Positions 1 to 17,413 of a DNA stretch of 64,000 bases are shown here, in pieces. The stretch spans positions 133,094-197,093 of the forward strand of contig OZ257136.1 in NCBI GenBank assembly GCA_965278995.1, in the 5' to 3' direction. Origin of the DNA: Gammaproteobacteria bacterium. GTDB taxonomy: Bacteria; Pseudomonadota; Gammaproteobacteria; Ga0077536. A model generated the notes under the pieces. That model did no database searches and was not told where the DNA came from. It was given only the letters and a program-made list of their open reading frames with translations. A program made the position numbers and the translations under genes. Positions within the stretch are counted from its first letter, which is position 1; each line of letters opens with the position of its first letter.

Positions 1-2
1 GA

Positions 3-155
3 ACGAAGCCAAGATTCGGCGGCGGTCTCGATGATGCATTCTGGAACGGAAGACGATTGGCCGTTCCGGGTACTGCATTGCTGTTTGGCACGATACCCGT
101 GCAGGCAACGCCGGAGTCCGTCATCGACATCATCAGGAGCATTGGCGTTACTTGA
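3..155 (+). CDS. 3' end of a CDS entering from the left edge, product unknown
   Basis: Frame-3 open reading TKPRFGGGLDDAFWNGRRLAVPGTALLFGTIPVQATPESVIDIIRSIGVT to TGA at 153-155, convergent on the TetR gene; family not recognised. Confidence 0.45.
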   Translation, partial: TKPRFGGGLDDAFWNGRRLAVPGTALLFGTIPVQATPESVIDIIRSIGVT

Positions 156-175
156 GCGTGGCTGCCGCTGACGAC

Positions 176-820
176 TCAGCGGCGAGCGCGCGGTCGGCTG
201 GCCGAGCCGCCAGCGATTCCAGATTTTGTTGTCAGGGCGGCGACCAGCATCGCATACAGTTCGTCGAATGCCTCGGCGATGGCAAGGTCAGTTGAACGAT
301 AGAATTCCGGTTCGCGCAGTCGATTGATGGCCGCGAAAACAACTTCAGCAATGAACGCCGGCGGTACTTCGCGAAAAACAGCGGCGCGAATTCCCGACTC
401 GATGATTTCAGTCAAGCCGTCAACACGCAGCCGCACATGTTGCTGCCACACCGCACGCGCTGGCGCCCAGGCATGAATATCGGAAACAGCAGTAGCGCTC
501 AGGCGCTCGGCCGCGTGTACACCCGCCTGCAAATAGCGATAGATACGTTGCTCCGGTCCGTCCTGGCCGAGCATGGCAACTGCGGCGTCGCTGCGGATGC
601 GCCCGAAGAATCGTTCAATCACGCGCAGGATGAGCTCATCGCGACTGGTTGCGAGTTCATAGAGCGTTCGCTTCGAGCAGCTCAATTGCCGTGCGATATC
701 GGACACATTGAGACGGGCAAACCCACGCGACAGCACGAGTGCCTCGAACGCATCCAGGATCTGTTCGCCGCGGCGCGTAGGGGCAAATGGCGCAGAATGA
801 ATTTCAGCTGTCGGTGTCAA
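176..820 (-). CDS. TetR/AcrR family transcriptional regulator
   Basis: N-terminal HTH RRGEQILDAFEALVLSRGFARLNVSDIARQLSCSKRTLYE; start uncertain (TTG 820 or ATG 853). Confidence 0.88.
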   Translation of the reverse strand: MTPTAEIHSAPFAPTRRGEQILDAFEALVLSRGFARLNVSDIARQLSCSKRTLYELATSRDELILRVIERFFGRIRSDAAVAMLGQDGPEQRIYRYLQAGVHAAERLSATAVSDIHAWAPARAVWQQHVRLRVDGLTEIIESGIRAAVFREVPPAFIAEVVFAAINRLREPEFYRSTDLAIAEAFDELYAMLVAALTTKSGIAGGSASRPRARR

Positions 821-1025
821 TGGCCAAGCTTCACGGTGGGCACCTGAGGGCATGATACCCAGGCAGCGCGCGCGCCGGCCACCGTTACTGCAGGACGACA
901 AGCGAAGTGGCGCTGCATCCACCTTCACAAACCGCCAGAGGCTCGCCGGGCACAGTCAGTCGAACGCTGCAATGCGACATGCACGGCCTGCGAACGGGTG
1001 CATTAATGCGTTACAAATGAGTCGG

Positions 1026-1054
1026 TTGACAGGGTGCTGGCGCGCCCCTATATT
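1026..1054 (+). promoter_or_regulatory. Near-consensus sigma70 promoter
   Basis: TTGACA (1026-1031), 17-bp spacer, TATATT (1049-1054); perfect palindrome GCATTAATGC at 1000-1009 just upstream. Confidence 0.65.
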
Positions 1055-1300
1055 CCGGGCTTCGCGGTTGTTTCGGGGGGATGGCGCCGCACGCGGTGTT
1101 CGATAGTTTCGGGCGCTGGCATTGCGGAACTGGGGCGTTCTACTCCGGTTCAGACGATTGTCGATTTTCAGCCTTGCGTTCGCTGTTCTTGAGATTTATT
1201 GAATGAGTCCGACGCCGATCGGACAACGACCCGCTGCGGCGGATCATTGCCACGCTGCAGTCCCGACACAGGACGCCAGGCGGTTTAGGGGAGTTTACGA

Positions 1301-1414
1301 ATGATGTACGAGACCGGCTCGATCACGTCGAGCCAGTGCAGCACTCCTGCCGACATGTCACCGCTCATGGTGGCCGCTCTGTCGTGCACTCTCCGCTCGC
1401 GCAACGCGTGTTGA
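1301..1414 (+). CDS. Candidate small ORF / leader peptide (37 aa)
   Basis: Strong RBS AGGGGAG about 7 nt before ATG 1301; MMYETGSITSSQCSTPADMSPLMVAALSCTLRSRNAC*; below the ORF-track size cutoff. Confidence 0.3.
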   Translation: MMYETGSITSSQCSTPADMSPLMVAALSCTLRSRNAC

Positions 1415-1510
1415 AACTTAGGATGCGCGGCAGCTCGATGACCTACGTTTCGGCTCAGCGTGAAGCTTAGTCTTCCGCTCCATCATTTTAGCAATTCGGA
1501 CCCAAACACA

Positions 1511-2545
1511 ATGAATATGACCTTGCACCTGGACCGCGTGTTCAATCGTCTGGCCCTCGATATCGCCCTCGTCTGTTCGGCGCTGGTCGCGGTACCGGTG
1601 CTGGCCGCCGAAGAAGCCGCCAGCGGCGATCAGGCTATCGAGATCGTTCGCAGCGGCATTCCGCACGACGCTCTGTTCGCGCTCGACATGAGCGGCAGCT
1701 ATGGTATTGCGGTTGGCGCTTTCGGCCTGATGCTGGAAAGCAAGGACGCCGGTGCGAGCTGGGCAGTGCTGCCGCCAAAAACACCGCTGGCCTTACTGGG
1801 TGTCAAGCGTGTCGGTGACCATTCCGTCGCCGTTGGCCAGCAGGGAATGGTCATGACTAGAGCGGGTGACGCTGAATGGACCGTCATCCAGAGCGGTATT
1901 ACGCAGCGCCTTCTAAATGTCGACATGAACGAGTCGGGTCTCGCATTGACGGTCGGCGAGTTCGGCTTTGTCTCAGTCTCTACCGACTTTGGCGCAAGTT
2001 GGACCGCCAAGCCGCTGGATTGGACGACCTATAACGAAGAGGGCTACGAGCCGCATCTGTACGAAGCCACGGTCACTGCAGAAGGCGTCTTGATGATCGC
2101 GGGGGAATTCGGCCTGATCCTGCGCTCGGAGGATCAAGGTGCGACGTGGACCGCGGTCAACCATGGTGATGAGTCGGTCTTTGCCATCCATCTCGCCAAC
2201 GATGGCAGCAACTCTGGTTATGCCGTCGGACAGGAAGGAATGATCGCCCGCACGACGGATGCGGGTCTGACCTGGACCAAGCTGCAATCGCCGAGCAACG
2301 CCAATCTGCTCGGCGTCTGGTCGGGCAATAGCGAGGTCGTCATTACCGGCATCCGCCAGATGCTGCGCTCAAGCGATGACGGCGCGACGTTTACGGGAAC
2401 CTCCGATCTCAACGTCGCTCGCACCTGGTTCCAAGGGGTGTCTGCCGCCGTGGCCGAGTCACCGTCGGGCGAGAAGGGTTTCCTGCGTCAGCAGACCGTG
2501 TTCGTTGCCGGGCACCGCGGCACGATTGCCAAGGTCGTCAAATAA
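1511..2545 (+). CDS. YCF48-related BNR/Asp-box beta-propeller, exported
   Basis: Signal peptide ending VLA-AEE; repeated Asp-box motifs SKDAGASW, STDFGASW, SEDQGATW, TTDAGLTW, SSDDGATF and VGxxG blades; typical partner of DUF1302/DUF1329. Confidence 0.85.
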   Translation: MNMTLHLDRVFNRLALDIALVCSALVAVPVLAAEEAASGDQAIEIVRSGIPHDALFALDMSGSYGIAVGAFGLMLESKDAGASWAVLPPKTPLALLGVKRVGDHSVAVGQQGMVMTRAGDAEWTVIQSGITQRLLNVDMNESGLALTVGEFGFVSVSTDFGASWTAKPLDWTTYNEEGYEPHLYEATVTAEGVLMIAGEFGLILRSEDQGATWTAVNHGDESVFAIHLANDGSNSGYAVGQEGMIARTTDAGLTWTKLQSPSNANLLGVWSGNSEVVITGIRQMLRSSDDGATFTGTSDLNVARTWFQGVSAAVAESPSGEKGFLRQQTVFVAGHRGTIAKVVK

Positions 2546-2574
2546 GCGCGTCAAGGCGCGCATCCGGTTCTCAC

Positions 2575-2610
2575 GCCGTCAGCGTCAGGCTGACGGCATC
2601 ACTTGTTTTC
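2575..2610 (+). terminator. Putative intrinsic terminator hairpin after the YCF48-like gene
   Basis: GCCGTCAGC-gtcag-GCTGACGGC followed by a weak T-rich tract. Confidence 0.4.
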
Positions 2611-2704
2611 GTTCACTATCGTTGCTGTACCGCAACATAGATTGTGTGCACTGCACAACACTCACATCGTTGCATTATCGCAACGCCGCGGCACAAATTA
2701 TCGA

Positions 2705-2790
2705 CCTAAATACCAACAAACGGTGTTTTTAGGCGTTGACAGCGTCGCGAAAATAAGCCGTAATAATAGAACTGCCGGAAAACCGGTAGT
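2705..2790 (+). promoter_or_regulatory. AT-rich promoter/operator region upstream of the DUF1302-like gene
   Basis: TTGACA at 2736-2741 with TAATAAT at 2761-2767 (non-ideal spacing); inverted repeats CCTAAA...TTTAGG (2705-2733) and ACTGCCGG-AAAA-CCGGTAGT (2771-2790). Confidence 0.45.
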
Positions 2791-2890
2791 ACTAAATTTG
2801 CACTGTACCAGACAAACAACAAAACGATTGTCGTCCGAGTACTACTGGGGTCCCAAGAAGATTCATTTGTCTAGGAGGAGAGCGGGAGTG

Positions 2891-5275
2891 ATGAAGCACA
2901 CAATCGCACGATTTCTCATGGCTGGAGGCGTAGCCGGTGGCGTCATGGTTGCCGGAACGGCAAGCGCTATCGACTTCAACGTCACCGGCTTTTTGCGTCA
3001 GGAAATCAGCTACGGTATTTCCTCGACGGAAAACCCGAACAACCTCATGTCCGGCCCGTTCAACGGCCGTGTCAATCAGAACCTGACCTTCGGCGGTTTC
3101 GGCGCAGGCGGTGATGCGTTTATTTCCGGCTTGCGCACAGCAGCCGGCGCTGGGGCGGGACTTGGTAACAATGGGGGCGCTCCGACGTCCCTGTATGTCA
3201 CGCCGAATCTCAACGGTGGCGCGCCGATCGTGGGCGGTATTTTTTCGTCCTTCCGCAACCCGGTGGCTGCAGCGGAAGCGCAGGCTGGGCAATTCCTGCC
3301 TGCAGGCGCAAATACCTCATTGCAGTTTGACTGCCATCTGAACTACCAGCGCGCCTTGGCGAGCCCGGGGACCAAGACCGGTTTCGGCCCGCGCGTTCTG
3401 TCCGACGGCCTGGCAACGTTTGCCGCGTCCGGTGCGGCTGGTGGAGAGAACTGCCCGCTGGGTGCCGATATCGGCCATCTGCCGGCCAACGATCCGGCGC
3501 GTGCGGCTTACGACGACATCAACTTCAACACGTTCAACACGCGTGCGGAAGTCGACGTACAGGCCAAGATCAGCGAAGAGTTCGCGGCTTACATGAAGGT
3601 GCGTGCCTACTACGATGGTACGTCCAAGTTCACTGACGGCAAGATCGGCGACAACTACAACACGCCGTTCTGGGGCAGCCGCGGCCAGATCACAGAATGG
3701 AACAGTCCGTCGTCGATTATCGACATCCCGGCGCTGTACCTCGACTGGAACCACGGTCCGCTATGGCTGCGCGCTGGTAACCAGGTCATCGCCTGGGGTG
3801 AAGCGTATTTCTTCCGTACCATGGACGTCGCTAACGGCCTCGACCTGCGTCGCCACCTGACACTTGGCCCAGGCGCCGAGGAATACCAGGACCAGCGCGT
3901 TGCCTCACCGGGCCTCCGTTTGAGCTATACGTTCCAGAATGGTTGGGAAGTAGACAGCTTCGTGCAGATGTTCTCGCCGACCATCCTGCCGGGCCAGAAT
4001 ACGGCTTACAACCTGGTCAGCCAGAATGGCGCACGCCTCGATGACTCTGCCGGGTTCGATGATGCCAAGGGCTCCCTCAACTTCGGTGCGCGCCTGAACA
4101 TGCCGCTGACCGAGTCGTTTACCGGCATCCTGGCCTATGTCAACCGGCGCAATCCGGATGGCGTGGTGCGCAACGTCGATGCACCGACGTACTGGGCTGG
4201 CAGCCCGAATTCCGGGTGCTTGAATAACTACAATGACACTTTGAACGTTCTGGCTAACGGTGTCGGCGGAGCGCTTTTCGGCGGACTCGGCTTCGGTGGT
4301 GGTTCAGTAGCTTCGGTCCAAACAGCGTTGGCAGCCAATGGCATTGCCGCTTTTCCGACGCTCAATACGGCCGCTCGCAACCAGGAAAACGGTTGCGGCT
4401 CCACGTTCGCGCCGGATCCGTATGGCACGACCTCGCAGAAATACTGGTCCACCATTCAGAGCGCTCGTCTGGATAACGGGAATTACATCGACCACGTCAT
4501 CAACGACTTCCCGGCTGCCAAGTGGGCCGTCCGCGATATCTTCGGCTTCGGCACCGAGCAGAACTTCGCTGAAACCTACCGCACCTTGGAAGGCTTCCGC
4601 AGTTCTTTCGGCCCCTTCATCCAATGGGTGGGCCGCGAGTTCAAGCGTGAGAACCTGTTCATGGTGGGTGGCAACTATGTCGTGACGACCGACGACCCGA
4701 ACTCGGTGTTCGACCAGTTGATCATCCGCGGTGAAGTGTCGGTGACACCAGACAAGAAGTTGACCAACGACCTGACTTTCGATTACACGGAAGTGGATGA
4801 CGTCGTCTCGGCCCTTATCTTCGAGAAGTATCACCGTTTCAGCGACGCATTCCCGGCAACCTACATGGTTGCGCAGTGGATGCACCGCACCTCGACGGAC
4901 CTGTTCGGGCGCGACCTGGACAAGAACGACTCGCCGGGTATCGATACGTTCATTGATCCGGTTACGGGCAACTTCACGGCGGCGGCGTTTGACTCGGACG
5001 CAATGGACCCGCGTGGAACGGCCAGCGCCAACTATGTGGTGTTTGCCTTCCAGCAGCCGTTCCCGAACCTGATCTGGCGCTTCGACATGTCGGTGCTGGT
5101 TGACGTAGCCGGCGGCTACCTGGTTCAGCCGGGTGTCCGTTATCGCCCGTCCGCCAAGTGGCAGTGGGATCTCTACGCGACCGTCATCGAATCACCCGGT
5201 GCCGATCACGACACGATTACCGAAGATCTGGACTGGGCTGACGAAATCTTCGTTCGCGCGACCTACTTCTTCTAA
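2891..5275 (+). CDS. DUF1302-like outer-membrane beta-barrel protein with large Gly/Ala-rich insertions
   Basis: RBS AGGAGGAG; signal peptide MKHTIARF...ASA-IDF; motifs RAGNQVIAWGEA, DVANGLDLRR; C-terminal beta-signal FVRATYFF; context with YCF48 and DUF1329. Confidence 0.8.
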   Translation: MKHTIARFLMAGGVAGGVMVAGTASAIDFNVTGFLRQEISYGISSTENPNNLMSGPFNGRVNQNLTFGGFGAGGDAFISGLRTAAGAGAGLGNNGGAPTSLYVTPNLNGGAPIVGGIFSSFRNPVAAAEAQAGQFLPAGANTSLQFDCHLNYQRALASPGTKTGFGPRVLSDGLATFAASGAAGGENCPLGADIGHLPANDPARAAYDDINFNTFNTRAEVDVQAKISEEFAAYMKVRAYYDGTSKFTDGKIGDNYNTPFWGSRGQITEWNSPSSIIDIPALYLDWNHGPLWLRAGNQVIAWGEAYFFRTMDVANGLDLRRHLTLGPGAEEYQDQRVASPGLRLSYTFQNGWEVDSFVQMFSPTILPGQNTAYNLVSQNGARLDDSAGFDDAKGSLNFGARLNMPLTESFTGILAYVNRRNPDGVVRNVDAPTYWAGSPNSGCLNNYNDTLNVLANGVGGALFGGLGFGGGSVASVQTALAANGIAAFPTLNTAARNQENGCGSTFAPDPYGTTSQKYWSTIQSARLDNGNYIDHVINDFPAAKWAVRDIFGFGTEQNFAETYRTLEGFRSSFGPFIQWVGREFKRENLFMVGGNYVVTTDDPNSVFDQLIIRGEVSVTPDKKLTNDLTFDYTEVDDVVSALIFEKYHRFSDAFPATYMVAQWMHRTSTDLFGRDLDKNDSPGIDTFIDPVTGNFTAAAFDSDAMDPRGTASANYVVFAFQQPFPNLIWRFDMSVLVDVAGGYLVQPGVRYRPSAKWQWDLYATVIESPGADHDTITEDLDWADEIFVRATYFF

Positions 5276-5300
5276 GTCGCAAGACGCTCTGGATGAATTG

Positions 5301-5328
5301 GAGCCGGCCTAGTGCCGGCTCTTTTTTT
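5301..5328 (+). terminator. Rho-independent terminator
   Basis: GAGCCGGC-ctagt-GCCGGCTC followed by TTTTTTT, shortly after the stop codon at 5275. Confidence 0.9.
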
Positions 5329-5636
5329 GCTCTGCCCTGATGTTCGGCAGGCTGCATCCGGGCACCCGCTCTCTACACTGTAAAACTTCGCATCCGATTG
5401 ATTTTGCTGCACTGCAGATGCCGCGAGCTATGCATGAATGGGGTATGCTAGGTGCCGCCGACGGGCTGGCAGCGCAGCGTCAGAAGCAGGCAACGGCGGA
5501 AGCGCCAGCGAGGCGGCGATACGCACCCGATCTGTCGAATTCGAGACCCCCACACCGATCATGACCCGTTATCTTTCGATTTCTTCCATGCCGATGTGCT
5601 TGCCTGGCGCTGCATTGCGCTGCGGATACACCGCGC

Positions 5637-6755
5637 ATGGCTAAGCCTCGCCGTCTTGTCATCTGGCTGGTGTTTCTCGCTTTCTCTGCCGTTTTGCATG
5701 CCATCGTCTCGGGCAAAATCGGCCATGAGATTGAGCGCAATAAAGTCCCGATACCGTTGGAGGAAGAAGTCGAGATTGCCATTGAGCAGGCGCCGCAACC
5801 GCTGATTGAAAAGGAGCCGCCGCCGGAGGAGCAGCTCGAATTCGACCAGGAACTCGAACTCGAGCCGCCGGAAATACTCATTGCGCCGAAAGCAGTGGTG
5901 CCACCACCACCCGATGTCACCGTGGCACTTAAGGCGCAAGCCGGCGGATTTGAGGGCGTCGATATCCCTAAAGCGCTCAACGTCGGCAATATTCCGATCA
6001 CTGCCAGCAAAGGGTTTGGCGGTTTGAAGAGCGGTATCGGCAATGGCCTGGGTGACGGTACTGCACAGTTCGCGGCCTACATCGCCGGCTTGCGCGAAGC
6101 GGGGCTCGATGTGATGTTCGTCATCGATGCAACCGGCTCGATGGGTTGGGTGTTGGAGGAAGTGAAAGATCGCATTGAGGACATCTCGCAGATAGTGCGG
6201 TCACTGGTACCGATAGCGCGTTTCGGTTTCGTTGCCTATCGCGATTACGACGCACCTGAATTCGTCACGCGCCTGCAACCACTGACCTACAGTACCGGCA
6301 AGCTGTATCGCTTCATGAGCTCGCTGAAAGCGCTTGGTGGCGGCGACTGGTACGAGGCCATTGATGCGGGTATCAGGGTTGCAATCGAAGAAGCCGGTTG
6401 GCGCCTTGGCGCGCGACGACTCATCATCGTCGTCGGCGACGCACCATTGCGTGAAGGGCAATTGAACAAGATAGTGCGCCAGATAGAGCAGTTCTCGCGG
6501 TCCGGGGGCATTGTCTCCACGCTGGATGTGAGCGATCAGGCCAATCCGCATCTGCTCGAAGCAAAGGTCGGTCGCAAAGTCAGTCTGGCGATGTACCGTA
6601 ATTCGCCCATGCAGGAATTCCAAATCATCGGCGAGGCCGGTCGTGGCGACACAGCGACGCTCGATGGCGATTTGAAACTCACCAGGCGCCTGATCAAGCT
6701 CATCATGGGCGACCAGTTTGCGACCCAGATGCAGGCGCTGCTGGACGTCATGTAA
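5637..6755 (+). CDS. Membrane-anchored vWA-domain protein with Pro/Glu-rich linker
   Basis: N-terminal TM helix with SAVLH; linker EKEPPPEE...VVPPPPDV; MIDAS motif DVMFVIDATGSM, then VAYRDY, GGGDWYEA, IIVVGDAP. Confidence 0.85.
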   Translation: MAKPRRLVIWLVFLAFSAVLHAIVSGKIGHEIERNKVPIPLEEEVEIAIEQAPQPLIEKEPPPEEQLEFDQELELEPPEILIAPKAVVPPPPDVTVALKAQAGGFEGVDIPKALNVGNIPITASKGFGGLKSGIGNGLGDGTAQFAAYIAGLREAGLDVMFVIDATGSMGWVLEEVKDRIEDISQIVRSLVPIARFGFVAYRDYDAPEFVTRLQPLTYSTGKLYRFMSSLKALGGGDWYEAIDAGIRVAIEEAGWRLGARRLIIVVGDAPLREGQLNKIVRQIEQFSRSGGIVSTLDVSDQANPHLLEAKVGRKVSLAMYRNSPMQEFQIIGEAGRGDTATLDGDLKLTRRLIKLIMGDQFATQMQALLDVM

Positions 6756-9043
6756 TGATTACCATGAAACATAAGTTCGTCTCGTTTCGTGTCATCGTGG
6801 ACAACAGCGGGTGTCTGCGTGTAGCACTGGCACTGATGGCACCGGCAATACTGGCGGTGCTGCTGACACTGGTCGGCATATCCGTCGCGCAAGCGGCGGA
6901 AGGTGGAGATCCGCAAGCGCAGCTTCGCGGCATGCTGGGGCGCTTGCAGGGTCAGGTCGGCTCGGATGTATTCAACACCGTTGCCAACGAAGTCGGCCCG
7001 ATCATCGATACCGTTCGCGAAACCAAGATGACCTCTCAGCAGCTCATCGTAATCCGCGATCTGGTCGAGAACATGCGCGAAGCGACGGCGCGTCGACTGA
7101 GCGAGATTGAAGCAGAAGCGAATGACAGCGAAGCTGCGCTGGAAACCCTCTACCGGTCACGCGTATGGGACGACCTGAGTTTCGCGCTGGGCGCATTCCC
7201 GTATTGGCGGGCCTGGGTCGATCTCGAACTGGCACGGCCTTACACCGACAAAGGTCAGAAAATTCAAGCTCTGCTGCCGGCGCAGAAAGGTTTTCGTGCT
7301 GCCTCGATGCAATTGTTCCGACCTGGCCTGGTCTACGGCGGTTGGCTCGGGCTCGGCTTCTGTGAACTGGAACTCGGGCGCACCGATAGAGCGACGAAGA
7401 TATTCCAGAATCTCGATAAAGCGCTTGCCGCGGAACCGGACTCGCCAATCAAGGAAGCTGTCTCGCTGGAGCTTCGCATGCTCGAGGCGAAACAGGGCAA
7501 GGTAACCGGCATTCGTCGGGCCGGTGGCGCTGTCGATACCAATGAATTACCCCTGCTCAAGACCGAAGCGTTCGCGTTGCTGCAGGATAGCCGCAAGACC
7601 GGCGGCCGCCCGCTGCTGGCGGCTGAACGGCTGAAAGCCATTATTGATGCCGGGCGTATCGATCAGGAACTGTTGCAGAGCATGCTCACGTACGCGCAGG
7701 AACTTTCAGGTGTTGATATTGGCGCGTATACGGATCTCGCCGGAGCCGAGTTCGCGCTCGCCAACGAGAACTACTATGACGCGATGAAAAAATACGAGCG
7801 CTTCTTTAACGAAGTCGTTGCGCCGCCCGGATTGGATTTATCTGGTTATCGCTATCGCTGGGCCGTGGCCGCCTACAAGCAAGGCATCTACCAGCCTGCT
7901 ATCGATATTCTTGAGCAGCTGTTGCGCGCGCCTGCGCTACCGGACGACGTAGACCAGGCCGCATCGAAACTTTTGTATGCCGTTCATGCAAGCCGCGACG
8001 CGCGCTCGAATTCGCCGACCAGTCGTCAACAATTACGAAATGCCGCACAGCGGTTCGTCAGCAAAAACCCAAACGATACCGACGCTGACGCTGCTCGCAT
8101 GATGATTGCGCAGACCGCTCCGGATGCAAAAATAGCGTTGCAACAGCTCAGCGAAATCAAATCGTCGAAATACAAAGGCGAAGTCGAACGGACGGCGTTC
8201 CAGATTGCCGCGCGCGCATTCAGCGACAAGATAGCGCGTGGCGCGTCGAGTGCCGCCACCGGTGCCGCGCAGCAGGGCATCATGGCGTTCCAGCGGCTGC
8301 CCGCTGAAGATAAACAGGACCCGTTCAATTTCGCGCTGCTGCTGCAGATGCGTGCGCTGGTCGATTCCAAACCGGCCGATGTCATCGCAGCCTTGGATGA
8401 GATCGAAAAGAAAGGTGTCTCGAATCTCGACATTCGACGCGCACTGGTGTGGTCGAGATTGAAGCTCTTCGATCGCATGCAGGCGCCAGAGCAGGCACTT
8501 GCCTATATCAAAAGCCTGGCCGACAAAGGTATTGAAAGCTGGCAGATAGAGTATTTGTATCCGTGGATCACCGAGAGAAAAGATATCGAGCAAAGGCTGG
8601 CCTACGCGCGGCTGCTGCAGCCGGGTGTCACTGACCAACCGGAGATGGACCGACGACTTCGCGGGCTCATCATTGAATCGCTGATGGCGCAGGAACTGGC
8701 GCAAGAGGCCTATGACGCTGCGCACGATTTCGCCAAGAACTTTCCGAGTTCGGGCAACGCCTGGAAGCTGCTGGCGCAGACTGCGGAAAAAGCCAGTCAA
8801 CCGTTCGAGGCCGATAAAGCATGGAGCGTGATCACCGGCAAGGCGGCGCCGGCGATGCCGGTCTGGTGGGAAGGGATGCTCGGGCGGGCGCGCATTCGAA
8901 TGGCGTCGGGACGTCCGGAACAAGCCTGCGAATTGCTGACCCAGATGGTAACGCAACGCGCCTTCGTGCCGGCCGAATACAGCAAGGATTTTGCCCGACT
9001 CGAAGCGAACCCCGAGTGCGCGGTGCGCGCTTCGGCGCAATGA
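6755..9043 (+). CDS. Large exported alpha-helical TPR-like protein
   Basis: TAATG stop/start overlap with the vWA gene; hydrophobic signal ending AQA-AEG; TPR-like helices such as YRWAVAAYKQGIYQPAIDILEQL and WWEGMLGRARIRMASGRPEQACELL. Confidence 0.7.
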   Translation: MITMKHKFVSFRVIVDNSGCLRVALALMAPAILAVLLTLVGISVAQAAEGGDPQAQLRGMLGRLQGQVGSDVFNTVANEVGPIIDTVRETKMTSQQLIVIRDLVENMREATARRLSEIEAEANDSEAALETLYRSRVWDDLSFALGAFPYWRAWVDLELARPYTDKGQKIQALLPAQKGFRAASMQLFRPGLVYGGWLGLGFCELELGRTDRATKIFQNLDKALAAEPDSPIKEAVSLELRMLEAKQGKVTGIRRAGGAVDTNELPLLKTEAFALLQDSRKTGGRPLLAAERLKAIIDAGRIDQELLQSMLTYAQELSGVDIGAYTDLAGAEFALANENYYDAMKKYERFFNEVVAPPGLDLSGYRYRWAVAAYKQGIYQPAIDILEQLLRAPALPDDVDQAASKLLYAVHASRDARSNSPTSRQQLRNAAQRFVSKNPNDTDADAARMMIAQTAPDAKIALQQLSEIKSSKYKGEVERTAFQIAARAFSDKIARGASSAATGAAQQGIMAFQRLPAEDKQDPFNFALLLQMRALVDSKPADVIAALDEIEKKGVSNLDIRRALVWSRLKLFDRMQAPEQALAYIKSLADKGIESWQIEYLYPWITERKDIEQRLAYARLLQPGVTDQPEMDRRLRGLIIESLMAQELAQEAYDAAHDFAKNFPSSGNAWKLLAQTAEKASQPFEADKAWSVITGKAAPAMPVWWEGMLGRARIRMASGRPEQACELLTQMVTQRAFVPAEYSKDFARLEANPECAVRASAQ

Positions 9044-9122
9044 GCGTCAGGCGCGGCCCGCGCTCGCACGAAGCGTGTTCAGGCCATTGGTTGCCCGGCC
9101 GGCCATGTTCGATGATTCAGTT

Positions 9123-10100
9123 ATGAGACTGCCAGTGTCCATCCTTACCGGCTTTCTCGGTGCCGGCAAGACGACGGTCCTCGCCCACGCGCTTGCTCAT
9201 CCCGCTTATGCGAAAACGGCCGTCATCGTCAACGAATTCGGCGCGGTCAGTATCGACCATCTGATTGTGGCGAATCTCGCCGAGAACATCATCGAGCTGC
9301 GCGACGGCTGCCTATGCTGCACGATACGGGGAGATCTCGCGCTGACGCTGCGTGATCTCCATCGCAAACGTTATCTCGGCGATATTCCCGCATTCGAGCG
9401 CGTGCTGGTCGAGACGACTGGGTTGGCCAACCCTGTCCCTATCCTGCATACCCTGGTTGCCAACCAACCGCTGCGTGGTGCATTCAGTATTGATGCCGTG
9501 ATTACAGTGGTCGACGCCGAACACGGCCTGCGTACACTGGCCGAACACGACACGGCGACCGCGCAGGTAGCGCTCGCCGATATTGTCGTCTTGAGCAAGA
9601 CCGATTGCGTGGATAGTGCGACACGACTCGCCATCCTCGACGCCATCGCGGCACTCAATCCGGGCGCCGAATGTATCGAGGCCGTGCATGGCGAAATAGA
9701 CCCGTCGCGCCTGATCGGCCGTCAGCTTTTTGAAGCGGCAGCACGCGGCGAGAACATCGACCGCTGGCTGGATGCTGCCCACGACCACGCGCATCACGGT
9801 GAACAGTATGGCGCTCACGTCATCCGGCATCAGGGTGACTGGAGTCTTGCCGGCACGAGCGTGTTTCTGAACCGGATGGTCAATGAATTCGGCTCCCGCG
9901 TCCTGCGCATCAAGGGCATCGCGGCGTTTCGCGAGAAAGGCGGGCGACCGGCCATCCTGCACGCGGTACAGAACAAGTTTTATCCGGTGAGCTGGCTCGA
10001 GCAATGGCCAGACGCCGATGACAGCGGTCGCCTGGTCATCATCGGCCGCGAACTCGACGTTTTGCGTATAGACGAATTATTCAAGTCTCTGTGTGTCTGA
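9123..10100 (+). CDS. COG0523/CobW-family G3E GTPase metallochaperone
   Basis: Walker A GFLGAGKTT, VIVNEFG, metal motif GCLCC, VETTGLANP, SKTD, His patch HDHAHH, CobW_C RIKG. Confidence 0.93.
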   Translation: MRLPVSILTGFLGAGKTTVLAHALAHPAYAKTAVIVNEFGAVSIDHLIVANLAENIIELRDGCLCCTIRGDLALTLRDLHRKRYLGDIPAFERVLVETTGLANPVPILHTLVANQPLRGAFSIDAVITVVDAEHGLRTLAEHDTATAQVALADIVVLSKTDCVDSATRLAILDAIAALNPGAECIEAVHGEIDPSRLIGRQLFEAAARGENIDRWLDAAHDHAHHGEQYGAHVIRHQGDWSLAGTSVFLNRMVNEFGSRVLRIKGIAAFREKGGRPAILHAVQNKFYPVSWLEQWPDADDSGRLVIIGRELDVLRIDELFKSLCV

Positions 10101-10175
10101 GGCACACAGGTTCGCGGGTTCGATGCCTCAGCGCATCGCCCGCGTGGCGTTCCATTCAGGCAGGGGAGTACGAGC

Positions 10176-11558
10176 ATGATACGCATCCGGAAATATACCG
10201 CCGACTACAGCCGTCGCCGATTCATGGAGCAGACGGCGGCCGGAATCCTTGGCGCGGGCGTACTGACGCCCGTCTGGTCGGCGCTGGCGGCCAACGGTGA
10301 TTTCAGCGCGTCCTATCCCGAGGAATTGCTGTCGATCGATAACTATACGAAAGGCAAGTTCAAGGCTGGTGATGTCATCGATGCCAGCAATGTGGATGAT
10401 GTCCAGGATCTGCTCGACCCGATACGCTACATGCAGATCAAGCAGATGGGGCGCAAACTCGACCTGGTCGTGTCGACGACCGATATCACCAAACTCAGCC
10501 CCATCGAATACATCGAAGCGACGCTCCGCCACAAAGGCATGGCCAAGTTCGATGCGACCGGCAACGTCGTTGTGGATGATGGCAAACCATGGGTGGGGGG
10601 CAATCCGTTTCCGGAACCGAAAGATGGCCTCGAACTGTTTGCCGGGATTACGCTGACCTGGGGGCGTCACGACGTGTCGTTCTATCCGGTCAAGACTTTC
10701 GAACTCGATGCCCATGGCAAGGTCGCGTATCGGTACGAACTGGTGTGGTGCGAATTTGCGCCGACCGGACGCGTCTCAGTCGAACCCAAGCCGTATTGGC
10801 CTGGGCATGAAGACAAGCTCCGCTACCAGTCGGTACTGTTCACGATTCCGCAGGACTACAAAGGAACGTCGTTTCTCAACACCTGGTACTACGATCAGCG
10901 CAAATTCCCCGAGCTCGAAGGTTATCTGCCGCAGTTCAAACGGGTACGCAATTTCCCGACAAGCCAGCGTTTCGAGCCGCTGCTGCCGGGTTCGAGCCTG
11001 TATTTTTCCGACGCCTGGGCTGCCGGTGATCCGTTCCTGACCTGGGGCAATTTCAAGATCATTTCGCGCGGGCCATTTCTCGCCGGGCTGACGGAGAACT
11101 GGGATTCGTCGGATGACAATTGGGAGGGCAAGACCCACGGGGGCGAAATCGGTACGACGTTCTGGGATACCAAAGTCGAATTGATTCCGGAAACCATCGT
11201 CGTCGAAGCCGAGCCCACCGGCTATGCGCGTGCTCCCATCAGCAAAAAACGCGTGTGGTTCGATGCCCGTACCGGATTGCCGGTATGCATGGTGACCTAC
11301 GATCGTAAAGGCGATATGTTCAAATCTTTCGACGGCGCTTATTCGGTCTACGACAACAACGGCAAACAGGTCATGGACGGGAAAAATCCCTACTGGTCAT
11401 GGACGCATGTCCATGCCCACGATGTGCAGACGAACAAGATGTCGCGCCTGAAACAGGTCAAGAAGATCGCAGGCGGCTATGAGATGTTCGTCAACAGCGG
11501 CGTCGACGTGTTTGATCAGTATCTGACGACAGCGGCGCTGCGACGACTCGGGACCTAA
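10176..11558 (+). CDS. DUF1329-like periplasmic protein (LolA-like fold family) with Tat signal
   Basis: Twin-arginine motif SRRRFMEQ; GNPFPEPKDGLE, YLPQFKRVR, KKRVWFDA, YDRKGDMFK, TTAALRRLG resemble DUF1329. Confidence 0.8.
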   Translation: MIRIRKYTADYSRRRFMEQTAAGILGAGVLTPVWSALAANGDFSASYPEELLSIDNYTKGKFKAGDVIDASNVDDVQDLLDPIRYMQIKQMGRKLDLVVSTTDITKLSPIEYIEATLRHKGMAKFDATGNVVVDDGKPWVGGNPFPEPKDGLELFAGITLTWGRHDVSFYPVKTFELDAHGKVAYRYELVWCEFAPTGRVSVEPKPYWPGHEDKLRYQSVLFTIPQDYKGTSFLNTWYYDQRKFPELEGYLPQFKRVRNFPTSQRFEPLLPGSSLYFSDAWAAGDPFLTWGNFKIISRGPFLAGLTENWDSSDDNWEGKTHGGEIGTTFWDTKVELIPETIVVEAEPTGYARAPISKKRVWFDARTGLPVCMVTYDRKGDMFKSFDGAYSVYDNNGKQVMDGKNPYWSWTHVHAHDVQTNKMSRLKQVKKIAGGYEMFVNSGVDVFDQYLTTAALRRLGT

Positions 11559-11595
11559 TCTATTTTCTGGAGCAGGCATTGGTTGGGCGAATAAT

Positions 11596-11829
11596 GTGCC
11601 GGGGTTCCGGCGCCGTCGCGCTGGCCCTGACAGACCAGACTTCTTTTACGGTCCGCCAGGGCCAGCACGACGGCGCCTGATATAACGACGCGACTGAGCA
11701 CCTGTCAGCACCGCTCCGAGTTAGCCGACTTTGTTCTGCGCTGCGCCTCGGCCGTGGCTGTGTCCCACGGCGGACCGTAAAAGAAGTTTGGTCCTCCGTG
11801 GGACACAGCCGCGGCCGGAACCCCGGCAC
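11596..11829. repeat. 234-bp composite inverted-repeat element (REPIN/MITE-like)
   Basis: Perfect 16-bp terminal inverted repeat GTGCCGGGGTTCCGGC / GCCGGAACCCCGGCAC enclosing two about 21-bp-stem hairpins whose loop cores are reverse complements of each other. Confidence 0.8.
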
Positions 11830-11843
11830 CCTATCGCCACAAG

Positions 11844-13775
11844 TCAACCGCTAACACCCATCGCGCGCTCCATTGATTCGAGTTCGTCCCAACGCGTCAC
11901 TGCGTGGTCGAGTTCCTCGCGAAGCTGGCCTAGCTCGTCGAGCAACGGTTGAATTTCGGCATAGTCGCGGGCGTAGAAATCCGGGGCCGATTGCGCTGAT
12001 TCCATGGCGATGATGCGTGCTTCAAGCGTCTCGATGCGCGTCGGTAATCCGTCCAGTTCCAGTTTGAGCTTATAGCTCAGCTTGCGCTGGCGAGGCTCCT
12101 CGGTGACCGCCGCCGGTGGGGATGGGGCAATGCGCCTGGTGGGTGCTGCAGCAGGCTTCTGACCCGCGGGTTCATCGGTTGCTGCGAGACGTTTGCCCTG
12201 GCGCAGCCAGTCCGAGTAGCCACCCGGGTAGCGAGTGACCGTACCAGCCGACTCGAACACCAGCGTGCTGGTCACGACATTGTCGAGGAACGCTCGGTCA
12301 TGGCTGACCACTATGACGGTTCCCTGGTAGTCACATAGCTGCGCTTCAAGCACTTCCAGCGTCTCTACATCGAGATCATTGGTCGGTTCGTCCAATACCA
12401 GGAGATTGGTTGCACGCGTAAACAGTCGTGCCAGAATCACCCGATTGCATTCACCGCCCGAGAGATAGCCTACCGGTGTCATGGCGCGTTTGGTACTGAA
12501 TAGAAAACCATGCAGATAGCCAATGATGTGTCGCTCATGGCCGTTGAACAGAATGTGATCGCGCCCGTCGCCGACGACGTCAGCGACCGTGCGTGTAGGA
12601 TCCAGATCGCGCCGATTTTGATCGAAATAGCCGACTTCCAGATTCTCGCCAAGGCGCAGGTTGCCACTGTCCGGTTCGAGTTCGCCGAGCAGCAGTCGCA
12701 GCAGTGTGCTTTTCCCGACCCCGTTGTTGCCGATCAGGCCGATGCGCTCGCCGCGCATGATCTTGACCGATAGTTGATGGATCACCGGCGTGTCGCCATA
12801 GCTGTAGGAAATGCCGTGCGCTTCAATCACCCGCCGGCTCGACTGTTCAGCTTCCTGCAATTCAATTCGCGCCTTGCCATCGGGTTTGAGGCGCACTGCG
12901 TGCTCGGCCCGCATTTGCTCTAGCGCGCGCACACGACCTTCGTTCCGCGTCCGCCGCGCCTTGATGCCTTGGCGGATCCAGGTCTCTTCTTCGGCCAGCC
13001 GTTTGTCGAACAGTGCGTGTTCACGCTGTTCCGCCTCGAGTGCGTTGTCCTTCTGCACCAGATAGCGCCGGTAGTCGCCGGGCCAGCTGCGGAGCTGACC
13101 TCGATCAATATCGACGATGCGGGTCGCGAGCGCCTGTAGGAATGCGCGATCGTGGGTGATGAACAGAACGGCGCCAGGGTAGGCGCGGACGCGATTCTCC
13201 AGCCACTGGATCGCTTCGAGGTCGAGATGATTGGTCGGCTCGTCCAGCAACAGTACTTCCGGCTGACTGACCAGCGCGCGAGCGAGACACACCCGGCGCT
13301 GCCAGCCGCCGGACAGCTCGTTCATTCGTTTAGTCGCCGGCAGTCCGAGATCAGTGATGACCGACTTCACCTGCGTTTCGATATCCCAGCCGCCATGTGC
13401 ATCGATGCGCTGCTGGAGTTCCTCGACTTCGCGCAGGCCGCTCGCGTCCAGGCCACCCGCCGTCAGTGTGCGATAGCGTTCAACCAGCGCGATATGCTGA
13501 GCGAGTCCTCCGGCAACGAATTGCGGAACGGTCAAATCGAGTGTGGCGGGCAGCGCCTGCTCGAGCTGACTGATATGCACGTTCGGACCGCGCCGGATCT
13601 CGCCGCTGTCCGGAATCTGCTCGCCGCTGATGAGACGAAACAGCGTCGACTTGCCGGCACCGTTGCGGCCGATCAGACAGACCCGTTCGCCCGGGTCCAG
13701 CGTGAAATCAGCTGCGCGGAATATCAGCTGATCGCCGAAGTCGAGATGGATGTCGGCGAGCGACAGGAGCGGCAT
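11844..13775 (-). CDS. uup: ABC-F family ATPase Uup
   Basis: Two ABC domains (GRNGAGKST, LSGGW, LDEPTNHLD; GNNGVGKST, LSGGE), linker WIRQGIKARRTRNEGRVRAL, C-terminal KLSYKLKLEL coiled coil. Confidence 0.93.
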   Translation of the reverse strand: MPLLSLADIHLDFGDQLIFRAADFTLDPGERVCLIGRNGAGKSTLFRLISGEQIPDSGEIRRGPNVHISQLEQALPATLDLTVPQFVAGGLAQHIALVERYRTLTAGGLDASGLREVEELQQRIDAHGGWDIETQVKSVITDLGLPATKRMNELSGGWQRRVCLARALVSQPEVLLLDEPTNHLDLEAIQWLENRVRAYPGAVLFITHDRAFLQALATRIVDIDRGQLRSWPGDYRRYLVQKDNALEAEQREHALFDKRLAEEETWIRQGIKARRTRNEGRVRALEQMRAEHAVRLKPDGKARIELQEAEQSSRRVIEAHGISYSYGDTPVIHQLSVKIMRGERIGLIGNNGVGKSTLLRLLLGELEPDSGNLRLGENLEVGYFDQNRRDLDPTRTVADVVGDGRDHILFNGHERHIIGYLHGFLFSTKRAMTPVGYLSGGECNRVILARLFTRATNLLVLDEPTNDLDVETLEVLEAQLCDYQGTVIVVSHDRAFLDNVVTSTLVFESAGTVTRYPGGYSDWLRQGKRLAATDEPAGQKPAAAPTRRIAPSPPAAVTEEPRQRKLSYKLKLELDGLPTRIETLEARIIAMESAQSAPDFYARDYAEIQPLLDELGQLREELDHAVTRWDELESMERAMGVSG

Positions 13776-13798
13776 GCGCTTCGCTCAGTAGACGGCTA

Positions 13799-14368
13799 TC
13801 AACGTACGCTCGCATGCGTTATGACTATCGGCACCATCGGTACGTCGGGCATGCCCTCGACGACACCGGTCTCGGTATCGGCGATACGGTCGACGACATC
13901 CATGCCCTCGACAACGCGTGCGAACACGGCATAACCCCAGCCTTGTGCGGTCGGTTCGGTATAGTCGAGGTTGGTGTTGTCGGACAGATTGATAAAAAAT
14001 TGTGACGTCGCACTTTCCGGATCCGGCGTACGTGCCATCGACAATGTCGCGCGCGTGTTCTTGATGCCGTTATCAGCTTCGTTCTTCACTGGCTCACGGG
14101 TTGGCTTGCGGATCATGTCCTCGGTAAAGCCACCGCCCTGGATGACGAAACCTGGAATAACCCGGTGGAAGATGGTGTCGTCATAGAATCCCGCCTTGAC
14201 ATAATGGATGAAGTTCTCGGCACTTCGAGGCGCCCGATCTGTCATGACCTCGATGACTATCGGGCCTTCGGTAGTTTCGAACACGACCACCGGCAACGTG
14301 CTGGCCGGAGTCTCGGCCTGCGTCACAGCGGCAAGCAGGACGAGGAATAAAGTAGTTAAGTATTTCAT
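13799..14368 (-). CDS. ppiA: Periplasmic cyclophilin-type peptidyl-prolyl isomerase
   Basis: Signal peptide; FHRVIPGFVIQGGG, MARTPDPESATSQFFIN, WGYAVF. Confidence 0.9.
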   Translation of the reverse strand: MKYLTTLFLVLLAAVTQAETPASTLPVVVFETTEGPIVIEVMTDRAPRSAENFIHYVKAGFYDDTIFHRVIPGFVIQGGGFTEDMIRKPTREPVKNEADNGIKNTRATLSMARTPDPESATSQFFINLSDNTNLDYTEPTAQGWGYAVFARVVEGMDVVDRIADTETGVVEGMPDVPMVPIVITHASVR

Positions 14369-14373
14369 GGATG

Positions 14374-15156: not shown

Positions 15157-15228
15157 GTGCGGTTCCGAGGCAGATTCCGGGACGTATTGTGCGGATTGAC
15201 CTGAGCGAAGTGAAGGGCGACATGGTCG

Positions 15229-17345: not shown

Positions 17346-17413
17346 TCGTCTTGTCGATGTCAGTTCGGTGCCGATGGTGCGACAGCGCTTCCGAGTGTGC
17401 AAGCGAAATCAAC

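Follow-up and report, generated by a model that had tools for sequence, protein, structure and literature searches.

How does a locus that encodes an outer-membrane barrel of the DUF1302 family, a DUF1329 protein and a YCF48-type propeller, and no RND/MMPL protein, come to carry the genes for a membrane-anchored vWA protein and a long TPR protein between the barrel and DUF1329, and what could the encoded proteins accomplish together? The question is raised by a 64,000-nucleotide stretch of a gammaproteobacterial genome (GenBank assembly GCA_965278995.1, contig OZ257136.1; C1:133094-197093 in the genome coordinates used here), hereafter called the window. Seven genes of the window form the locus, i.e., six co-oriented transport genes, which encode YCF48, DUF1302, vWA, TPR, COG0523 and DUF1329 proteins in this order, and a divergent TetR gene; all of them had been named in an earlier description made from the DNA letters alone (the sequence-only reading), and all are present by the list of open reading frames (ORFs) and Pfam. 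The first half of the question has a plain answer: the window locus is a reduced version of a conserved, larger cluster that spans the envelope, and it has lost an ExbB/ExbD-type motor and an MMPL gene in the window's genus. The second half is answered conditionally: the locus probably, though by no means certainly, represents the outer-membrane and periplasmic part of a dispersed, Ton-like, proton-driven variant of RND/BNR/DUF1302/DUF1329 hydrophobic-substrate transport.

A Larger Cluster in Related Genomes

Relatives of the vWA protein were collected by scanning one genome per species, which yielded 102, all from uncultured Gammaproteobacteria; the best 80 loci were kept. Synteny was counted by tblastn, with the loci that had enough flank as denominators, and divergent homologs may be missed in these counts. 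In other genera of the family, mapping of the window proteins and Pfam annotation of the extra ORFs reveal the order MMPL-YCF48-DUF1302-ExbB-ExbD-ExbD-vWA-TPR-[acyl-CoA synthetase]-[COG0523]-DUF1329, which is shown, as far as comparison of sequences can tell, to be the ancestral cluster in the family. The TPR gene lies 3' of the vWA gene in 74/74 loci. Upstream of the vWA gene are ExbB (58/64 loci) and two ExbD genes (55/64), as well as DUF1302 and YCF48 (36/48 each) and, directly upstream of YCF48, MMPL (35/48); DUF1329 follows downstream of TPR in 45/57. COG0523 is encoded in 19/57 loci and an AMP-binding acyl-CoA synthetase inside 12/57, and thiolase and acyl-CoA dehydrogenase genes adjoin two loci (L016 and L103). 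Its recurrence in 80 species-level genomes places the arrangement far outside what chance would produce, and many genera retain the same insertion point between DUF1302 and DUF1329. The idea that a vWA-TPR-COG0523 set recurs with DUF1302/DUF1329 is borne out for TPR and DUF1329, and for COG0523 in a minority of loci. Beyond these loci, the TPR protein was found in 21/24 other genomes of the window's family and in 0/16 genomes of other families in the class.

Genomes of the window's own genus look like the window: TetR is divergent to YCF48, followed by DUF1302 (often in two tandem copies), vWA, TPR, COG0523, DUF1329 and Uup, and both MMPL and the motor are absent from the locus. The vWA genes of this genus (four inspected) are 64-69% identical and have no motor in their locus, and the TPR gene is present in 9/10 same-genus genomes at 55-59% identity. 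In the window, no MMPL match exists, just as the sequence-only reading had noticed; the genome holds 28 MMPL matches, the nearest of them at C1:556652. Remnants of MMPL, ExbB or ExbD were not detected in the two intergenic regions, including 5276-5636 (best tblastn E >0.1). The proposal that had been built on the missing gene, i.e., a variant machine that works without MMPL, fares badly in the light of the relatives, which have MMPL and ExbB-ExbD-ExbD in the cluster: the genus merely lost these genes from the locus and keeps close relatives of them elsewhere in the genome.

The vWA Protein as a Putative Force Transducer

The vWA protein (5637..6755, plus strand) matches Pfam VWA_4 (E 8e-11), VWA_2 and VWA. 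Its AlphaFold2 (AF2) model consists of a helix (4-34), a low-confidence stretch (34-142) and a vWA domain (141-372); the mean predicted local distance difference test score (pLDDT) is 66.8, with domain blocks mostly at 77-93. The linker of ~110 residues has pLDDT <50 at 34-62 and 64-142; in the alignment, it contains stretches of PPPEE and PPPPD along with an acidic/hydrophobic motif that is conserved. Invariant in an alignment of 14 sequences are W10, S17 and H21 in the N-terminal hydrophobic helix, and D164-x-T166-x-S168, T217 and D268, which are of the metal ion-dependent adhesion site (MIDAS) type. The S-x3-H pattern occurs in 74/75 full-length relatives, the lone miss being a truncated hit. 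Foldseek returned 491 PDB matches for the head at E<=0.001, and the top ones were all vWA or I-domains: the best are BatB (3ibs, E 7e-10), 4jdu (E 2e-8, Bacteroides aerotolerance) and I-domains of the integrin and anthrax-receptor type. The A1 profile had 0 matches among PDB sequences.

A class of “vWA periplasmic force transducers” was proposed in 2025 (Mol Biol Evol; PMC12204202), of which the authors state “Their function remains unknown.” According to the main text of that paper, its members have an inner-membrane tether with the SHLS motif (Ser-x3-His-x6-Leu-x3-Ser, with an essential His) and a Pro-rich linker, and their genes have as neighbours a tolQ-like gene, two tolR-like genes that differ from each other, and an as yet uncharacterised TPR gene; a gliding-type role was suggested for them (PMC12204202). 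The window protein resembles the class, as described there, in its Ser/His helix, its disordered, Pro-rich linker of ~100 residues, its C-terminal vWA fold and its TPR neighbour. Adjoining motor genes are missing from window 1-16000, and in the window's relatives exbB-like and two different exbD-like genes adjoin vWA together with TPR (58/64 loci for ExbB, 55/64 for two ExbD). Since it combines a TonB-type S-x3-H helix with a Pro-rich disordered linker and a MIDAS vWA head, the protein therefore appears to belong to this class, its match to the SHLS motif being confined to the Ser/His core: S17 and H21 are invariant in 14/14 sequences, while position +11 is I/V instead of L and +15 is not a conserved Ser. 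Unlike the published cases, the module is embedded here in a DUF1302/DUF1329/YCF48/MMPL cluster, with a window locus devoid of motor genes, and the order is motor-vWA-TPR as opposed to TPR-motor-vWA in the PVC group, as far as the latter is set out in PMC12204202.

The layout also invites comparison with the TonB-ExbB-ExbD and TolQ-TolR-TolA(-CpoB) systems, with which, in the features available for comparison, the relatives' clusters share an anchored S-x3-H transducer, a periplasm-spanning Pro-rich linker and an ExbB/ExbD-type motor, and, in the case of TolA(-CpoB), a TPR gene placed after the transducer like CpoB. The C-terminal domain of TonB and TolA binds its target by beta-strand addition. 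In contrast, the window protein has a vWA domain with MIDAS as its C-terminus, not TonB_C or TolA_III, and no TonB_C or TolA match in Pfam; judging from its sequence, it is TonB-like in layout and not a member of the TonB/TolA family. The outer-membrane partner likely differs as well: in place of a TonB-dependent receptor or Pal/TolB, it would be a DUF1302 barrel that lacks a plug, along with a LolA-like protein as a separate component. The earlier suggestion that the vWA protein is an inner-membrane-anchored bridge toward the outer membrane agrees with this helix-linker-head layout. A third comparison concerns BatA/BatB-BatC, where membrane-anchored vWA proteins are likewise encoded beside TPR proteins; the vWA head is about 19-23% identical to Bat structures, but an S-x3-H helix, a long linker and an association with ExbBD are not known from Bat proteins. 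Genes for a MoxR ATPase and a DUF58 protein belong to Bat operons, and neither was found by Pfam among the 12 proteins of window 1-17402, on which Pfam was run, or in the related loci scanned.

The window genome encodes exactly one vWA transducer, and in a class-wide sample of 400 genomes the full-length vWA family was found solely in the window's own family (3/3). Another 16 of the 400 genomes gave matches to the vWA core only and were set aside for their different architecture, with the vWA domain directly after a signal peptide. They represent a separate family of ~400 aa (L119-L133) with a DTTGSM motif, whose genes are preceded by two ORFs of ~185 aa.

The TPR Protein and Its Pairing with the vWA Protein

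The adjoining gene (6755..9043, plus strand) encodes a TPR-like protein of 762 aa. The stop codon of vWA (TAA, 6753-6755) and the ATG of this gene (6755-6757) overlap by one base, which agrees with the coupling proposed in the sequence-only reading. Profile searches gave Pfam identifications for the other five transport proteins; here, the matches remained below threshold (best TPR_14, 23.0 bits vs. a cut-off of 23.5), and the AF2 model is an all-alpha solenoid (pLDDT 87.7, all helical at 53-761) behind an N-terminal hydrophobic helix. The family (120 hits) is annotated only as hypothetical, and the Foldseek search of the fold retrieved generic TPR scaffolds only (TM <0.3), with no informative match. 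Two C-terminal cysteines, C725 and C755, are invariant, which would fit the periplasmic location that we infer for the protein. One such partner gene, and exactly one, exists in the window genome. Look-alikes in the protein atlas, which provide a lead only, are long TPR proteins mostly of Planctomycetota.

A complex of TPR 51-762 and vWA 90-372 was predicted along with 3 controls, as the sequence-only reading had suggested. The pair scored 0.60 (runs 0.60, 0.52 and 0.61), and the best control 0.01; between runs, 26% or more of the contacts agree, and the partner pLDDT is at least 68. The mark that was applied is reached by 58/80 solved complexes and 2/110 mismatched pairs, and at a score of 0.60 or under by just 7 of the 80 solved complexes and by both mismatches. 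The model thus lends weak support by itself. As the prior is high (74/74 co-occurrence, overlapping codons), it is taken as modest support for the view that vWA and TPR proteins may bind each other.

Candidate Partners Elsewhere in the Genome

MMPL and ExbB/ExbD partners, for which the sequence-only reading had recommended a search, were indeed found outside the window. The locus-type MMPL of L017 identifies a 66%-identical gene at C1:1756639-1758813 and, in addition, two tandem genes at C1:1738906-1743555 (56-57% identical). The locus-type ExbB leads to a single gene (41% identical, C1:3575975-3576580), which belongs to an orphan ExbB-ExbD-ExbD operon (C1:3575000-3576600) in the same genome, 3.4 Mb from the window locus. 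This operon has no adjoining transducer, and its ExbD proteins are 40% and 31% identical to those of L016. In a careful maximum-likelihood tree, the orphan ExbB groups with 61 locus ExbBs and not with the 7 other ExbB/TolQ/MotA paralogs of the genome (support 98/93), and the same 40-43% type of ExbB, with none closer, is present in 9/10 same-genus genomes. The genome further contains 4 DUF1302 and 11 DUF1329 places. The simplest reading of these data is that the window locus is part of a dispersed system, for which a published precedent exists: the RND/BNR/DUF1302/DUF1329 module is reported to be split over the genome in Pseudomonas stutzeri and P. putida. For annotation, this implies that a locus that seems to lack MMPL and ExbBD may be a complete system with its parts dispersed in the genome.

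Two other features of the motor locus were recorded. The orphan operon lies between two MMPL genes that belong to another subfamily (910 and 822 aa, with a sterol-sensing-domain match in the latter) and a methyltransferase gene, and its ExbB ORF has ~110 aa extra at the N-terminus compared to the locus ExbBs.

Two Published Modules and a Possible Joint Mechanism

The RND/BNR(YCF48)/DUF1302/DUF1329 four-gene module was described in 2016 (bioRxiv 072470) and is also treated in bioRxiv 2020.07.04.188060, PMC10866462 and PMC13499233; cofitness of the four-gene module on Tween 20 is reported in print. Published multimer models, in what is available of them, predict a DUF1302-DUF1329 complex and a DUF1329-BNR-RND complex. 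The module occurs widely among Proteobacteria (Pseudomonas is one example), is encountered repeatedly in catabolic islands for hydrophobic compounds, and matters for growth on fatty esters. The same four families recur here, and three of them (DUF1302, DUF1329 and BNR/YCF48) are encoded together in the window above Pfam cut-offs; the fourth, the RND/MMPL partner, is absent from the window. It is encoded beside YCF48 in 35/48 related loci, and candidates for it elsewhere in the window genome are the 66%-identical copy and the two tandem genes (56-57%). Unlike the cluster studied here, the published module comes without a motor, vWA or TPR protein in the accessible text of the four reports, and the window proteins differ in that DUF1329 is of the Tat type and DUF1302 has ~790 aa.

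A comparable pair of genes, TOL_3187 (MMPL with a LolA-like domain) and TOL_3188 (porin), is induced 42-fold on the n-C28 alkane in Thalassolituus oleivorans, as stated in the text consulted of PMC6304351. It shares with the present cluster, by description, an MMPL protein, a LolA-like element, an outer-membrane pore and a very hydrophobic growth substrate, but its LolA-like part is fused to MMPL, and vWA, TPR or motor proteins are not reported in that text (PMC6304351).

Literature searches yielded no paper that pairs DUF1329 with ExbB; papers that combine DUF1302 and TonB, judged by title, do not concern a link between the modules; PMC12204202 was the sole paper that joins vWA, “force transducer” and TolQ; and the Thalassolituus study was the only one in which LolA-like and ExbD occur together. 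The main text of the latter contains no occurrence of LolA, RND, MMPL, DUF1302 or DUF1329, although its supplements might show such neighbours. Both modules are thus in print separately, and a link between them was not found in these searches. Of the claim that the system is undescribed, it is only this link that stands, since the modules themselves have been published (PMC12204202; bioRxiv 072470).

The mechanism that follows from combining the two would involve an RND(MMPL)/YCF48-BNR/DUF1302/DUF1329 set for hydrophobic substrates and a Ton/Tol-like motor set, which consists of ExbB, two different ExbD proteins, the anchored vWA transducer and the long periplasmic TPR protein. The orphan motor would dock on the vWA transducer at its S-x3-H helix and pull on it using the proton gradient, with the Pro-rich linker spanning the periplasm. 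The MIDAS head and the TPR scaffold might then engage the DUF1302 barrel/DUF1329 complex and gate or drive the passage of hydrophobic substrates, which would be handled at the inner membrane by MMPL/YCF48; COG0523 would be an optional accessory. Uptake of a fatty-acid-like or other lipidic substrate seems the more likely direction, given the acyl-CoA synthetase in 12/57 loci and the thiolase and acyl-CoA dehydrogenase genes beside L016 and L103, and given the Tween 20 phenotypes of the four-gene module and the n-C28 induction in Thalassolituus. If this holds true, the proton gradient could power the transport of hydrophobic substrates through barrels of this kind, and the interleaving of the two modules gives each a concrete hypothesis, in which the client of the transducer is the LolA-like/barrel outer-membrane complex.

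A bolder version, which we regard as tentative and on the whole doubtful, takes the cluster for a third Ton/Tol-like engine. In this machine, an ExbB-ExbD-ExbD' proton motor would pull, via a TonB-type anchor, an integrin-like MIDAS/vWA head, with the TPR protein of roughly 750 aa as adaptor and DUF1329 as both detachable plug and carrier for the plug-less DUF1302 barrel; very hydrophobic compounds would pass the outer membrane and be handed to MMPL/YCF48. The engine would work even with motor, MMPL and outer-membrane parts encoded at three genome sites, and the same general function would apply to a vWA superfamily of 238 clusters.

The Association beyond One Lineage

This superfamily was defined with a profile of the vWA family: searched against 1.84 billion representatives, the profile reached the 238 clusters at E<=1e-30; each of the 12 distant members inspected has an S-x3-H helix, a linker and a vWA head (12/12). 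A metagenome scan with an alignment of distant members returned 470 relatives, of which 79 loci were kept and annotated by Pfam (71 ORFs of 10 loci) and by phmmer over the ORFs of all 79. The distant loci contain, in several gene orders, a kit that combines vWA with ExbB, with ExbD (one gene or two) and with an 800-980-aa TPR protein, and this core is complete in 51/79. Directly 3' of TPR there is often a gene for a LolA_like protein of ~570 aa (PF17131, with weak DUF1329 matches). Sixteen distant loci have a complete core and no less than 2.5 kb to spare on each side; of these, LolA-like/DUF1329 genes are present in 10, MMPL in 4, DUF1302 in 3 and YCF48 in 2. Because distant loci with other gene orders again carry LolA-like/DUF1329 genes, the association with LolA-like carriers and RND-type pumps is no peculiarity of a single lineage.

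In three distant loci (L137, L150 and L160), ORFs of ~590 aa lie directly upstream of vWA or the motor, and they may represent the outer-membrane component there. They match no Pfam family even at E<=1; those upstream of vWA in L137 and L160 were considered as possible barrels.

COG0523, DUF1329 and the Metal Question

The COG0523/G3E GTPase gene (9105..10100, plus strand, in an ORF from 8991, with 9105 as the likely true start) encodes matches to cobW (PF02492, 162.3 bits, E 1.1e-47) and CobW_C (PF07683, 48.3 bits, E 9e-13). The translation contains the P-loop GFLGAGKT, a GCLCC motif (GCLCCT) and a His-rich stretch, as in the GTPases YjiA, YeiR, ZigA and CobW. Unlike these, it reaches no NCBIfam equivalog cut-off (YjiA-type 179.9/361, CobW 145/332, ZigA 136/600), so that no subfamily can be assigned, and it is accompanied by no Zur-like site and found in 19/57 loci only. 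Where present, COG0523 is always encoded between TPR (or the acyl-CoA synthetase) and DUF1329, and the orthologs are 52-66% identical, compared to 37% for the next paralog in the window genome. These sequence relationships suggest an old but dispensable member of the cluster, i.e., an optional passenger.

DUF1329 (10176..11558, plus strand), a LolA-like periplasmic protein with the Tat-like motif SRRRF, matches PF07044 with 185.4 bits (E 2.5e-54) and LolA_like with 34.2 bits; its orthologs across the loci are 66-83% identical. The N-terminus M[HI]IRKYDFDYSRRxF is shared by 4/11 DUF1329 paralogs of the genome (window 10176-11558; C1:802254, 2274165 and 5007336), while the others have Sec signals, and this Tat-like subfamily is probably exported in folded form. 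It is tempting to regard Tat-exported DUF1329 as the client of COG0523, which is speculation from sequence. A link between the Tat signal and COG0523 was considered and rejected, given that the signal occurs in 22/26 loci with and 27/32 loci without COG0523. All 55 downstream orthologs of DUF1329 have H321 and H413, which the 3 closest paralogs lack; as evidence for a conserved metal site, two lineage-specific invariant His residues, with no Cys, were judged too thin. A Zur-box-like palindrome had no match in the locus with up to 3 mismatches allowed, and outside the locus its 2 matches do not exceed chance; the Rfam scan of window 1-16000 (E<=0.1) detected no riboswitch. The metal-loaded component that the sequence-only reading had held to be required is thus not supported, because COG0523 is confined to 19/57 loci, the Tat signal is equally frequent without it, and neither a Zur-like site nor a riboswitch is present.

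Weighing the Explanations

Several observations weigh against the proposed dispersed, motor-driven uptake system. The SHLS match of the transducer does not extend to the last two positions of the motif, and the complex prediction for vWA and TPR is weak. In a quick tree, the orphan ExbB is sister to L082 and not to the motors of the nearest relatives, such that it might represent an additional motor, or an acquired one, that serves another client; its action in trans on the vWA protein is inferred from sequence. Moreover, the loci behind the synteny counts are related to one another, and the counts thus do not represent independent events. Stand-alone ExbB-ExbD-ExbD-vWA-TPR operons with unrelated flanks occur in a clade of 7-8 loci, and a close DUF1329 ortholog (E<=1e-40) is absent in 5/5 genomes of this clade; a divergent LolA-like/MMPL/DUF1302 operon ~8.6 kb downstream in five of its genomes was weighed as weak because a LacI gene and genes on the other strand intervene. 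Finally, 6/16 of the well-flanked distant loci lack any LolA-like/DUF1329, MMPL or DUF1302 gene, although in one of these six (L187) an AcrB-type RND gene adjoins vWA.

These observations bear most directly on the possibility that vWA, TPR and, where present, the motor constitute an independent system for adhesion, gliding or envelope tethering, which is merely lodged between DUF1302 and DUF1329 and does not cooperate with them. Stand-alone operons, distant loci without transport genes, the terminator that separates transcripts after DUF1302 in the window, and the gliding-type role suggested in the main text of PMC12204202 would all fit such a scenario. It is nevertheless improbable, since many genera have the insertion at the same place between DUF1302 and DUF1329, LolA-like/DUF1329, MMPL or DUF1302 genes are found beside the module in 10/16 distant loci in other orders (L142, L154, L169, L214), and vWA-TPR stayed with DUF1302/DUF1329 in the window's genus even after the motor had been lost from the locus. 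Somewhat more credible, and a rival to be taken seriously though still unlikely, is that the same machine operates outward or in envelope maintenance: the motor-vWA-TPR set would then, in a Tol-Pal- or Lpt-like manner, power the export or the insertion of a lipidic envelope component by way of MMPL/YCF48, DUF1329 and DUF1302, or would maintain outer-membrane lipid homeostasis. RND/MMPL proteins are typically exporters, which argues for this direction, as do the neighbouring housekeeping genes (Uup, PpiA, YaaA) and the BaeSR-like pair for envelope stress beside them. From pleiotropic phenotypes, export of a cell-wall component by the four-gene module was proposed (bioRxiv 072470, in its accessible text), and the motor-transducer-TPR order recalls tolQ-tolR-tolA...cpoB as given in the main text of PMC12204202. 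Catabolic uptake, on the other hand, is indicated by the acyl-CoA synthetase inside 12/57 loci and the beta-oxidation genes beside some, by a TetR regulator with faint FadR-like similarity, by 4 DUF1302 and 11 DUF1329 paralogs, numbers that fit substrate-specific uptake better than a single envelope pathway, and by the published links to Tween 20 and alkane, which, as far as those texts go, are growth substrates.

Two further explanations have very little in their favour. A self-contained uptake or assembly machine that needs no MMPL, uses vWA and TPR to bridge the membranes and depends on a metal component loaded by COG0523 would account for the absence of MMPL from the window, the constant position of COG0523 and the closeness of its orthologs (52-66% vs. 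37% for the next paralog), a Tat-type DUF1329 that could be metal-loaded in the cytoplasm, and the lineage-specific H321 and H413. It is highly unlikely in view of the MMPL gene in 35/48 clusters and its 66%-identical copy elsewhere in the genome, the 38/57 loci that do without COG0523, the Tat-like motif that is equally frequent in those loci and common to 3 paralogs outside the locus, and the lack of a Zur-box-like site in the locus and of a riboswitch in 1-16000. It is just as improbable that vWA and TPR are decaying, non-functional leftovers in a genus whose motor and MMPL have gone. Motor and MMPL are indeed absent from the locus in the window and in same-genus L018/L028, L019/L027 and L023/L029, and the lost genes left no remnants in the intergenic regions, but the vWA and TPR ORFs are intact with every invariant residue kept, and a motor of the matching clade is retained in 9/10 same-genus genomes. 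The TPR gene has been kept in 9/10 of these genomes at only 55-59% identity, which implies long retention under constraint.

Other Features of the Locus

The first transport gene encodes a YCF48/BNR beta-propeller with a signal peptide (1511..2545, plus strand, in an ORF from 1460; PSII_BNR PF14870, 47.4 bits, E 2.1e-12; BNR, E 1.2e-8), with the start at 1511 as originally read, and orthologs in related loci are 46-64% identical. It is followed by the DUF1302 outer-membrane barrel (2891..5275, plus strand, in an ORF from 2603; PF06980, 79.9 bits, E 2.7e-22), for which the Met of MKHTIARF at 2891, with a signal peptide, is the likely start; the protein of ~790 aa has large insertions relative to the 541-position Pfam model. 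The window contains one copy of DUF1302, and same-genus L018, L019 and L029 contain two full copies in tandem, 55-62% identical to that of the window. A paralogous locus at C1:1577581-1582085 contains, in this order, genes for a 783-aa DUF1302 protein, a HEAT-repeat protein of 396 aa and a 435-aa DUF1329 protein, together with a divergent YCF48-like gene, so that an alpha-solenoid again lies between barrel and LolA-like protein, without a vWA protein.

An intrinsic-terminator-like hairpin with T-run (5300..5332, plus strand; hairpin 5300-5322) begins 25 nt past the DUF1302 stop, at the position where relatives have ExbB-ExbD-ExbD. It consists of a 9-pair stem with 7 G-C pairs, a 5-nt loop and TTTTTTT, and corresponds to the strong terminator assigned to 5301 by the sequence-only reading. 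The scan as a whole gave 10 sites vs. 11.6 expected in shuffles, and because this is no excess, only the quality and the position of the 5300-5322 site count.

The TetR-family regulator (176..928, minus strand; TetR_N, E 6.9e-7; TetR_C_27, E 2.2e-7) has weak FadR/FasR-like matches only in NCBIfam (E about 7e-4, far under cut-offs). Its divergent orientation to YCF48 is retained in same-genus loci; as a constant neighbour of the wider cluster it was dismissed, with a homolog within 1.5 kb upstream of MMPL in just 5/28 loci. The TetR/YCF48 intergenic region contains a promoter-like site (1026..1054, plus strand; TTGACA-17-TATATT, 11/12 consensus matches), which is a consensus match only, as the 3 such sites found there are not above the 4.9 expected in shuffles.

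On the 3' side of the locus, the opposite strand encodes Uup, PpiA, YaaA and the BaeR/BaeS-like pair. The convergent gap between DUF1329 and Uup contains a nested palindromic element (11591-11834) of two hairpins with arms of 31 and 28 nt, which are mutually inverted copies. In appearance, the element is low-copy and REP/MITE-like; its Rfam matches, at 11609-11820 and the only ones in the scan, are sub-threshold hairpin matches to miRNA families. The hairpin unit (~75-88 nt) recurs at about five further genome sites, near 0.47, 0.53, 1.68, 2.35 and 4.69 Mb, and one of these copies sits directly after another DUF1329 gene.

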